Source: Schmidtea nova
Taxonomy: Eukaryota
DNA length: 64,000 nucleotides
Assembly (NCBI GenBank): GCA_044892505.1
Contig: CM097882.1
Coordinates: forward strand, 68,882,001 to 68,946,000
Direction: 5' to 3'
Position numbers and translations under genes: made by a program. Below are positions 57,894 through 58,897 of the stretch, piece after piece. How positions within the stretch are numbered: the stretch's first letter is position 1; every line of letters begins with the position of its first letter. The notes under the pieces were generated by a model. That model had not been told where the DNA came from. It made no database searches and saw nothing but the letters and a program-made list of their open reading frames with translations.

Positions 57894-57934
57894 GCACCTG
57901 ATGAAGAGAATTAAGTTCTCGAAATATATTGTGC
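57894..57934 (+). ncRNA. Minimal type I hammerhead ribozyme, copy 1
   Basis: Stem I GCAC/GTGC; core CTGATGA plus an extra A; stem II GAGAA-TTAAG-TTCTC; GAAA; palindromic stem III (ATATAT); NUH = AUU; predicted cleavage after 57930. Confidence 0.75.
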
Positions 57935-58737
57935 AAAATATATATTTGGATTGGCGTTTGTTGTTAATTATATTAGTGCCATGCTGGTTGTGTTATGTAT
58001 TAAAGAAAGATAATAATCCGTCAGTTGTTCCGGTATTCTGTGAAAGTTTGTCTAGGAAAATGTTTGTATATAATTTTTATAATTCTAAATGTATAGAGCT
58101 TTATATTGTCGAATTAGTATTTCGATTTAATGATAAGGTTTACACTTGTGCTGATTCCTTCTCTTATTCTATTGTTTATGAATTAATTGATGTGATTGTT
58201 GGCGATTCTAAGTTTTCTGTATTGTTCTTTGCTCTGTTCTCGTTTATATTTTCAAACGTCATGGGTGAAATGCCACATACATTGGAAAAGACTGCCCGTC
58301 TTCTCTGTATTCGAGTTTCAGAGCGGAGTCAATTAATGGGATTTAGCGTTGCTTTCAGTCATATCGTTGTTTGTGAATATGTGAGTTTGAGAGTTTTGAG
58401 TCCGTGTGTTTGCCTCATTTTTTGCGGTTTAAGTAAATTAACTGATGTGGTTGTCGATGGTGTTTATTTTCTTCTTTTGATTTGTGTTCTATACTCGTTT
58501 AATTTTTCAAATGTCATGGGCGTAATGCCACATACTTTGGACAAGACTGACCGTCTTTTCTGTACTCGAGTTTTAGAACATTTTCAATTGGGGATTATGG
58601 ACTTCGTTTTTAATCCTTCTGTTGTTTATAAATATGAAAATATTTATAATATATTCTTAAAAAAAATATTTTTTTGTATAAAAATAAAAGAATATTATAT
58701 TTTTAAGATTAATTTATTTAAATTTAAAAATTTTTAA
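57901..58737 (+). CDS. 278-aa hydrophobic, predicted multi-pass membrane protein of unknown family with an internal repeat
   Basis: Stop-free 837-nt frame in AT-rich DNA; repeats FSNVMGEMPHTLEKTARLLCIRV / FSNVMGVMPHTLDKTDRLFCTRV with several third-position differences; opposite-strand frames have many stops. Confidence 0.5.
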   Translation: MKRIKFSKYIVQNIYLDWRLLLIILVPCWLCYVLKKDNNPSVVPVFCESLSRKMFVYNFYNSKCIELYIVELVFRFNDKVYTCADSFSYSIVYELIDVIVGDSKFSVLFFALFSFIFSNVMGEMPHTLEKTARLLCIRVSERSQLMGFSVAFSHIVVCEYVSLRVLSPCVCLIFCGLSKLTDVVVDGVYFLLLICVLYSFNFSNVMGVMPHTLDKTDRLFCTRVLEHFQLGIMDFVFNPSVVYKYENIYNIFLKKIFFCIKIKEYYIFKINLFKFKNF

Positions 58738-58856
58738 TCGATATAAATTTTTTGACTATAATAGAATTTAAAATATATATTTTATTTTAAAAATTAATAC
58801 TAATTTGTTCGAATAAATCGATTTATTTGATTTGTATTTGGATGTAAGATTGGGTA

Positions 58857-58897
58857 GCACCTGATGAAGAGAATTAAGTTCTCGAAATATATTGTGC
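58857..58897 (+). ncRNA. Minimal type I hammerhead ribozyme, copy 2
   Basis: Identical to copy 1 over GCAC...GTGC; predicted cleavage after 58893. Confidence 0.75.

Follow-up and report, generated by a model that had tools for sequence, protein, structure and literature searches.

Among the closest described systems is PAc, a Poseidon element of Anolis carolinensis, whose ORF begins inside a hammerhead ribozyme, with the cut located 26 nt after the start codon (Frangieh et al. 2024, PMC11167929). In the same work, uncut RNA was the main substrate, and mutation of the hammerhead left insertion in vitro unaffected. The pseudo-LTRs (pLTRs) of metazoan Penelope-like elements (PLEs) carry minimal hammerheads, which have a short stem I, an unpaired base before stem II and a palindromic stem III requiring a dimer, and which cleave poorly in vitro (Cervera and de la Pena 2014, PMC4209133); circles had already been proposed there as templates for copies of more than unit length. 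The role of the hammerhead in PLEs has been described as a question that is still open (PMC8557442). Non-LTR retrozymes of animals belong to the non-autonomous elements, are made of tandem type I hammerhead units and derive from, or depend on, PLEs (PMC7229834; Li et al. 2026, bioRxiv 10.64898/2026.07.22.740005); they were reported to be ~300 nt long and non-coding and to carry canonical hammerheads (Cervera and de la Pena 2020, PMC7229834). In viral UTRs, hammerhead cleavage promotes cap-independent translation, with the cut lying upstream of the start codon (PMC13725137).

The window analyzed here, a 64,000-nt stretch of the Schmidtea nova genome, contains a 963-nt hammerhead unit with a long reading frame that starts within the ribozyme core (Table 1). 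As in PAc, the ORF starts inside the hammerhead, here with a predicted cut 30 nt downstream, the pLTRs are arranged in tandem, and the tails end at preferred sites within the start of the ORF, matching internal initiation of reverse transcription; unlike PAc, which is autonomous and has its start codon after G8, the 963-nt element lacks a reverse transcriptase (RT), and its AUG is composed of A6-U7-G8 (PMC11167929). The short stem I, the unpaired base before stem II and the palindromic stem III are shared with the minimal hammerheads of metazoan PLEs, whose units measure ~3 kb rather than 963 nt; start codons are no topic in the available text on them (PMC4209133). With the retrozymes the element has in common the tandem type I hammerhead units, whereas its unit is of triple length, its hammerhead is minimal, and it contains endonuclease remnants and a long open frame, so that neither the ~300-nt size nor the non-coding character was found (PMC7229834). 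The order of elements, with the start codon 5′ of the cut, is the reverse of that in the viral UTRs (PMC13725137). A literature search, which is weak because it extended only to papers outside subscription, retrieved no report of an animal retrozyme that reaches kilobase size and contains a long ORF.

The traits of a PLE derivative that we observed were pseudo-LTRs, inverted and 5′-truncated copies, a minimal type I hammerhead, GIY-YIG ancestry, the absence of an RT of its own, and an optional 30–40-nt tail with preferred 3′ ends beyond the hammerhead. The 963-nt element is a non-autonomous PLE, and we consider it probable that the AUG in its core is the inherited start of an RT-endonuclease gene and that the 278-codon frame is a functionless relic. 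The sequence feature itself is real, the element is of a known kind and the layout has a published precedent; as it is probably shared by inheritance, it does not constitute a new regulatory principle.

Table 1 Features of the 963-nt element in the window (positions of the whole stretch).
Feature	Position	Strand	Description
Upstream pseudo-LTR	57598..57972	+	5′-truncated unit end, continued by the initial 72 nt of the following unit
Minimal type I hammerhead, copy 1	57894..57934	+	Sequence, fold and covariation; predicted cut between 57930 and 57931
ATG	57901..57903	+	Spelled by core positions A6-U7-G8; same place as the start of the RT-endonuclease ORF in sister family B
278-codon open frame	57901..58737	+	Probable remnant of the ORF of a Penelope-like element, RT absent; no Pfam family or homologue
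GIY-YIG remnant 1	58222..58322	+	80% DNA identity to the family B endonuclease, E 8e-22; profile matches in two frames
GIY-YIG remnant 2	58476..58581	+	78% DNA identity to family B, E 2e-21; same frame split
Downstream pseudo-LTR	58560..58935	+	98% match to the upstream pseudo-LTR
AT-rich untranslated stretch	58738..58863	+	Between the stop codon and the following ATG; holds 8 additional in-frame stops
Hammerhead, copy 2	58857..58897	+	Core and stems as in copy 1; ATG 58864-58866; predicted cut after 58893
3′ tail	58894..58935	+	42 nt beyond the predicted cut; ends at +72 relative to the ATG, in the most frequent class of ends in the family

The two pLTRs can be aligned with a single 1-nt gap, and the predicted cuts of the two hammerhead copies are spaced by exactly the unit length. 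The original prediction had placed the first ATG inside a CUGAUGA core, 30 nt upstream of a cut before 57931, and the second at 58864-58866; these coordinates were confirmed, both ATGs lying inside CTGATGA motifs. Sequence and predicted fold give a stem I of 4 bp, a stem II of 5–6 bp and a palindromic stem III. A search of the whole window against Rfam at the gathering score yielded no match. In an alignment of five hammerhead families from the host genome, 92% of the cells were paired, 8 of 12 pairs had changed on both sides, and none of 500 shuffles matched the covariation score; this analysis used a hand-written structure and only five sequences, and in one of them (family E) the alignment of stems I and III is wrong. 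Directly past the 3′ end of the element, at 58941-59521, an AT-rich unit of 206 nt is repeated ~3 times in tandem.

A reading frame of 278 codons is far beyond chance expectation, as none of 20,000 shuffles produced one as long and the longest comprised 135 codons. The encoded protein resembled nothing in the collections searched: Pfam gave no family at E 10, homologue searches returned none among the 369 and the 791 candidates scored, and none was present among 1.84 billion representatives. An Atlas search provided leads only (best score 0.77, recognition 842), and AlphaFold without an alignment was uninformative (pLDDT 38.7). At the DNA level, the frame contains the two GIY-YIG remnants, which are spaced by 255 nt and match the intact endonuclease over ~100 nt. 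Each has one extra base, which divides the endonuclease reading over two frames, and the second is a 255-nt internal repeat of the first (74% identity over 58181-58340). A supposed third, older copy at residues 51–69 scored −0.9 bits and was rejected as not significant, and a match to an RT was sought in the element and not found.

The origin of the AUG became apparent from a sister family in the same genome. A motif search for intact relatives gave 77 matches, from which 30 loci and 20 longer stretches were examined, leading to family B, which has 2,448 hammerhead matches in the host genome and is ~20% diverged from the 963-nt element where the two can be aligned. Full units were present in two of eight stretches, both of them 2,698 nt long and thus not divisible by three. 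In one of these, the AUG of the CUGAUGA core opens a frame of 861 codons, and the other has one internal stop. The 861-aa protein matches RVT_1 (E 5e-12) and, weakly and below the cut-off, GIY-YIG (E 0.007), and it has 1,387 relatives at E 1e-20. Its domains follow the order RT and then C-terminal GIY-YIG, the one described for the Penelope/Poseidon clade (PMC8557442), to which family B may belong; the DKG motif and the lack of a zinc-finger linker that mark this clade were compared by eye. Window positions 57882-57931 align without gaps to the hammerhead region of family B (76% match) with the ATG in register; beyond the hammerhead, the first 48 residues showed no significant homology to family B (z −0.5 for protein, 1.7 for DNA). 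The CTGATGA spelling was found in 58 of 60 cores, and the AUG lies upstream of the cut in both the 963-nt family and family B. Judged from these alignments, the AUG in the core was probably handed down as the start codon of an ancestral gene for an RT-endonuclease. A direct autonomous parent with the exact hammerhead of the window was not found by a scan of the GIY-YIG family (40 loci) and by motif searches, which recovered sister families only. The full-length family B element with the intact frame is located at L244:1059-3641 on the minus strand (G000 C1, ~3.153–3.156 Mb), and it has a second in-frame ATG at codon 24, downstream of the predicted cut.

Other relatives are arranged differently. 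None of 53 family C cores contains an AUG, and in family E the first ATG follows 105 nt past the core, which makes a start within the hammerhead an optional layout rather than a required one. The start of family C might lie just after the cut; the one long copy found is truncated at ~residue 38. Among 120 homologues of the family B protein, 13 fitted a loose N-terminal signature, and the same spacing occurred in P0009 only. This Penelope-like protein from another source, a lead only, starts Met-Met and carries Lys-Tyr-Ile at positions 8–10, a spacing expected of a protein whose start codon lies in the hammerhead core. Also noted was a separate, active-looking Penelope-like family (L091, L092 and L094) with a ~3,136-nt unit and an 854-aa ORF, adjoining ATT/AAT repeats, in which the hammerhead variant reads UUGACGA, with U replacing C3.

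The 963-nt family is large and young. The exact hammerhead of the window occurs 6,474 times in the host genome (G000, 1.25 Gb) and not once in a reversed control, an internal 30-mer has 2,383 matches, and units differ from the majority state by ~12 substitutions. The 30 best-matching loci showed 5′ truncations, inversions and partial tandems, the layout known from PLEs (PMC8557442), and 27 of 71 sampled insertions hold 2–9 full tandem units. In 19 of these 27 arrays, a variant unique to the insertion was present in every unit, and in 12 identical substitutions ran throughout. Such homogeneity is in keeping with a single monomer being copied again and again, for instance as a circle, and just as much with template jumping, duplication at the DNA level or a source array missing from the sample. 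The array at L203 (G000 C1, 143.26 Mb) comprises at least nine near-identical 963-nt units. At L047 and L048 (G000 C2, ~381.98 Mb), the units form a set of three (278, 278 and 71 aa) that occurs twice, as if a trimer had been duplicated.

The ends of the copies were informative about the template. At 248 distinct hammerhead sites, 3′ ends fell mainly into two classes (174 sites), +65 to +80 (83) and +98 to +120 (91) from the ATG; 58 sites ran on into a further unit, and only one ended at or before +35. A pile-up of 5′ ends at the predicted cut was looked for in 79 copies that were followed upstream, starting at the internal 30-mer, and no excess was found: two started at +25 to +37, as many as an even spread would give. 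There was a mild excess just 5′ of the hammerhead, with 13 ends at −28 to +4 out of 47 in the stretch from −119 to +119, a figure counted by hand, spotted post hoc and including both arms of one inversion. That copies end past the hammerhead and none pile up at the cut argues that inserted copies are made from RNA in which the junction is intact. Transcription of the 963-nt unit would start from its own pLTR, and the RT of an autonomous element may bind the parasite RNA just past the hammerhead and begin reverse transcription 35–90 nt downstream of the cut site, with an uncut multimer or a re-ligated circle as the possible template. Mobilization in trans by an autonomous PLE is putative, and intact candidates exist in the host genome. 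Any translation would proceed from the ordinary uncut transcript, and the cut, by parting the AUG from its frame, would act as an off switch at most.

Whether the frame is maintained was analyzed in 118 full units, of which one was discarded for an identity below 80%, leaving 117 units from 71 insertions, or ~5% of the family. The ATG is retained in 114 of the 117, a value biased upward as the hammerhead served to find the units, and 90 retain at least 250 codons. Exactly 963 nt was the length of 60 units; 69 had a length divisible by three and 48 did not, of which 30 still contained an ORF of at least 250 aa. In a position-sampled subset (first unit of each of 45 insertions), the corresponding numbers were 42 for the ATG, 30 for at least 250 codons, 19 for 963 nt and 23 for divisibility by three. 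Amino acid change in the frame is neutral, and protein constraint is absent: private variants comprised 199 non-synonymous and 51 synonymous changes (neutral expectation 188 and 56), variants present in at least three insertions 47 and 11 (expectation 43 and 13), and the ratio did not differ between internal and terminal branches (44/9 vs 206/51, p 0.71). Between the two internal repeats, dN/dS in the ORF frame was 0.67–1.24, no clearer than in the other frames.

Counting against a pure relic, the frame stayed open through several junctions and despite 57 differences over 198 sites between the repeats, for which the neutral chance of no stop is 0.13. Changes that break codons 11–213 were, moreover, confined to terminal branches of a FastTree tree (31 of 291 vs 0 of 53 internal, p 0.007; p 0.005–0.007 with other units per insertion). 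One explanation, which we regard as unlikely, is that selection keeps the frame open while the protein is irrelevant, translation from the core AUG protecting the RNA against decay or bringing it close to RT just synthesized, so that copies with a broken frame would fail to spread. The late position of inherited breaks in the ORF (rank test p 0.006), the 90 units with at least 250 codons and the extra base in each remnant, which brings reading back to the endonuclease frame, would agree with this. However, the codon boundary was picked after the data had been seen, and an IQ-TREE tree moved one event to an internal branch, so that p ranged from 0.04 to 0.14 with six boundaries and reached 1.0 when the entire ORF was taken. 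Neither stops by themselves (0 of 53 vs 8 of 265, p 0.36) nor homopolymer slips by themselves (p 0.56–1.0) gave a significant difference, indels from DNA repair gather on terminal branches and maybe not on internal ones, and the difference between arrays and single insertions (24 of 27 vs 23 of 44) follows age. Since the family is young, most units would be intact by age alone, and since family B already has an open reading for the peptide that the remnants give in the shifted frame, the openness is in large part inherited. Selection for an intact frame is a lead, not a result, positive on one tree and weak on the other, and not robust. Quite unlikely, in our estimation, is a more elaborate version in which the parasite must be translated to spread, having kept the AUG of its helper and a junk frame so that the passage of a ribosome licenses reverse transcription, and in which cutting and re-ligation toggle this state.

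The original prediction envisaged that the full protein could be made only from the uncut precursor or the ligated circle, translation being coupled to the processing state of the RNA. As a model of a functional protein, we think this very unlikely. A cut linear monomer would indeed lack the start AUG, the AUG precedes the cut in two families, and of the AUGs past the cut the first two lie in other frames, the first in-frame one being codon 54; the homogeneous arrays are compatible with circles, which animal retrozymes form (PMC7229834). A simulated circle gives the same protein, but the idea that circularization re-joins the ORF is not supported, as the uncut transcript already has it. Nor is the in-frame join a signal, because any monomer excised from a tandem repeat at corresponding sites restores the original junction when closed, and all 117 units, including all 48 of a length not divisible by three, give the same ORF as a circle and as linear DNA. 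The divisibility of 963 by three lost its meaning too, since the frame ends 126 nt before the next ATG, with eight more in-frame stops in between, which precludes rolling-circle read-through. In endless-frame coding circular RNAs, as in zeta viruses, frames have no stops, so that a unit length divisible by three matters. These too join a hammerhead-bearing unit to a reading frame, but differ from the 963-nt element, with its nine in-frame stops before the junction and its 48 units of other length. A circular RNA has no cap and would therefore require internal initiation. The neutral ratio of changes and the lack of homologues or a confident fold speak against a functional protein, families C and E do without an AUG in the core, minimal hammerheads cleave poorly, and among the PAc reads in the available text of PMC11167929 none began or ended at the cut. 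Because the layout is common to an intact relative and likely inherited, circular RNA is not needed to explain it. That the AUG is a chance by-product of the CUGAUGA core and the frame accidental, a possibility the same prediction had conceded, appears extremely improbable: a U at position 7 is enough for any core to read AUG, yet the homologous AUG begins the intact 861-aa ORF of family B, and the shuffles never yielded such a frame.

An inherited start codon and a relic frame remain our preferred reading of the 963-nt element. A young family of thousands of copies, with an intact sister and a start codon that uses the catalytic G8, is a handy system, in which the questions can be addressed whether cleavage silences translation and whether the parasite needs an open frame.

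The window holds further putative mobile elements. At 41347-44718 on the plus strand, consecutive frames of 780 and 342 aa are separated by a stop; the first matches endonuclease VII, a similar stretch occurs in L201, and both frames resemble, by eye, a protein-primed DNA polymerase of Polinton-like elements. Remnants of LTR retrotransposons lie on the minus strand at 28481-32480, with RT, RNase H and integrase, and at 15923-17569, with zinc knuckles and an aspartyl protease. Finally, 51902-52933 is a MITE-like inverted repeat with 241-nt arms that are 93% complementary and spaced by 550 nt.
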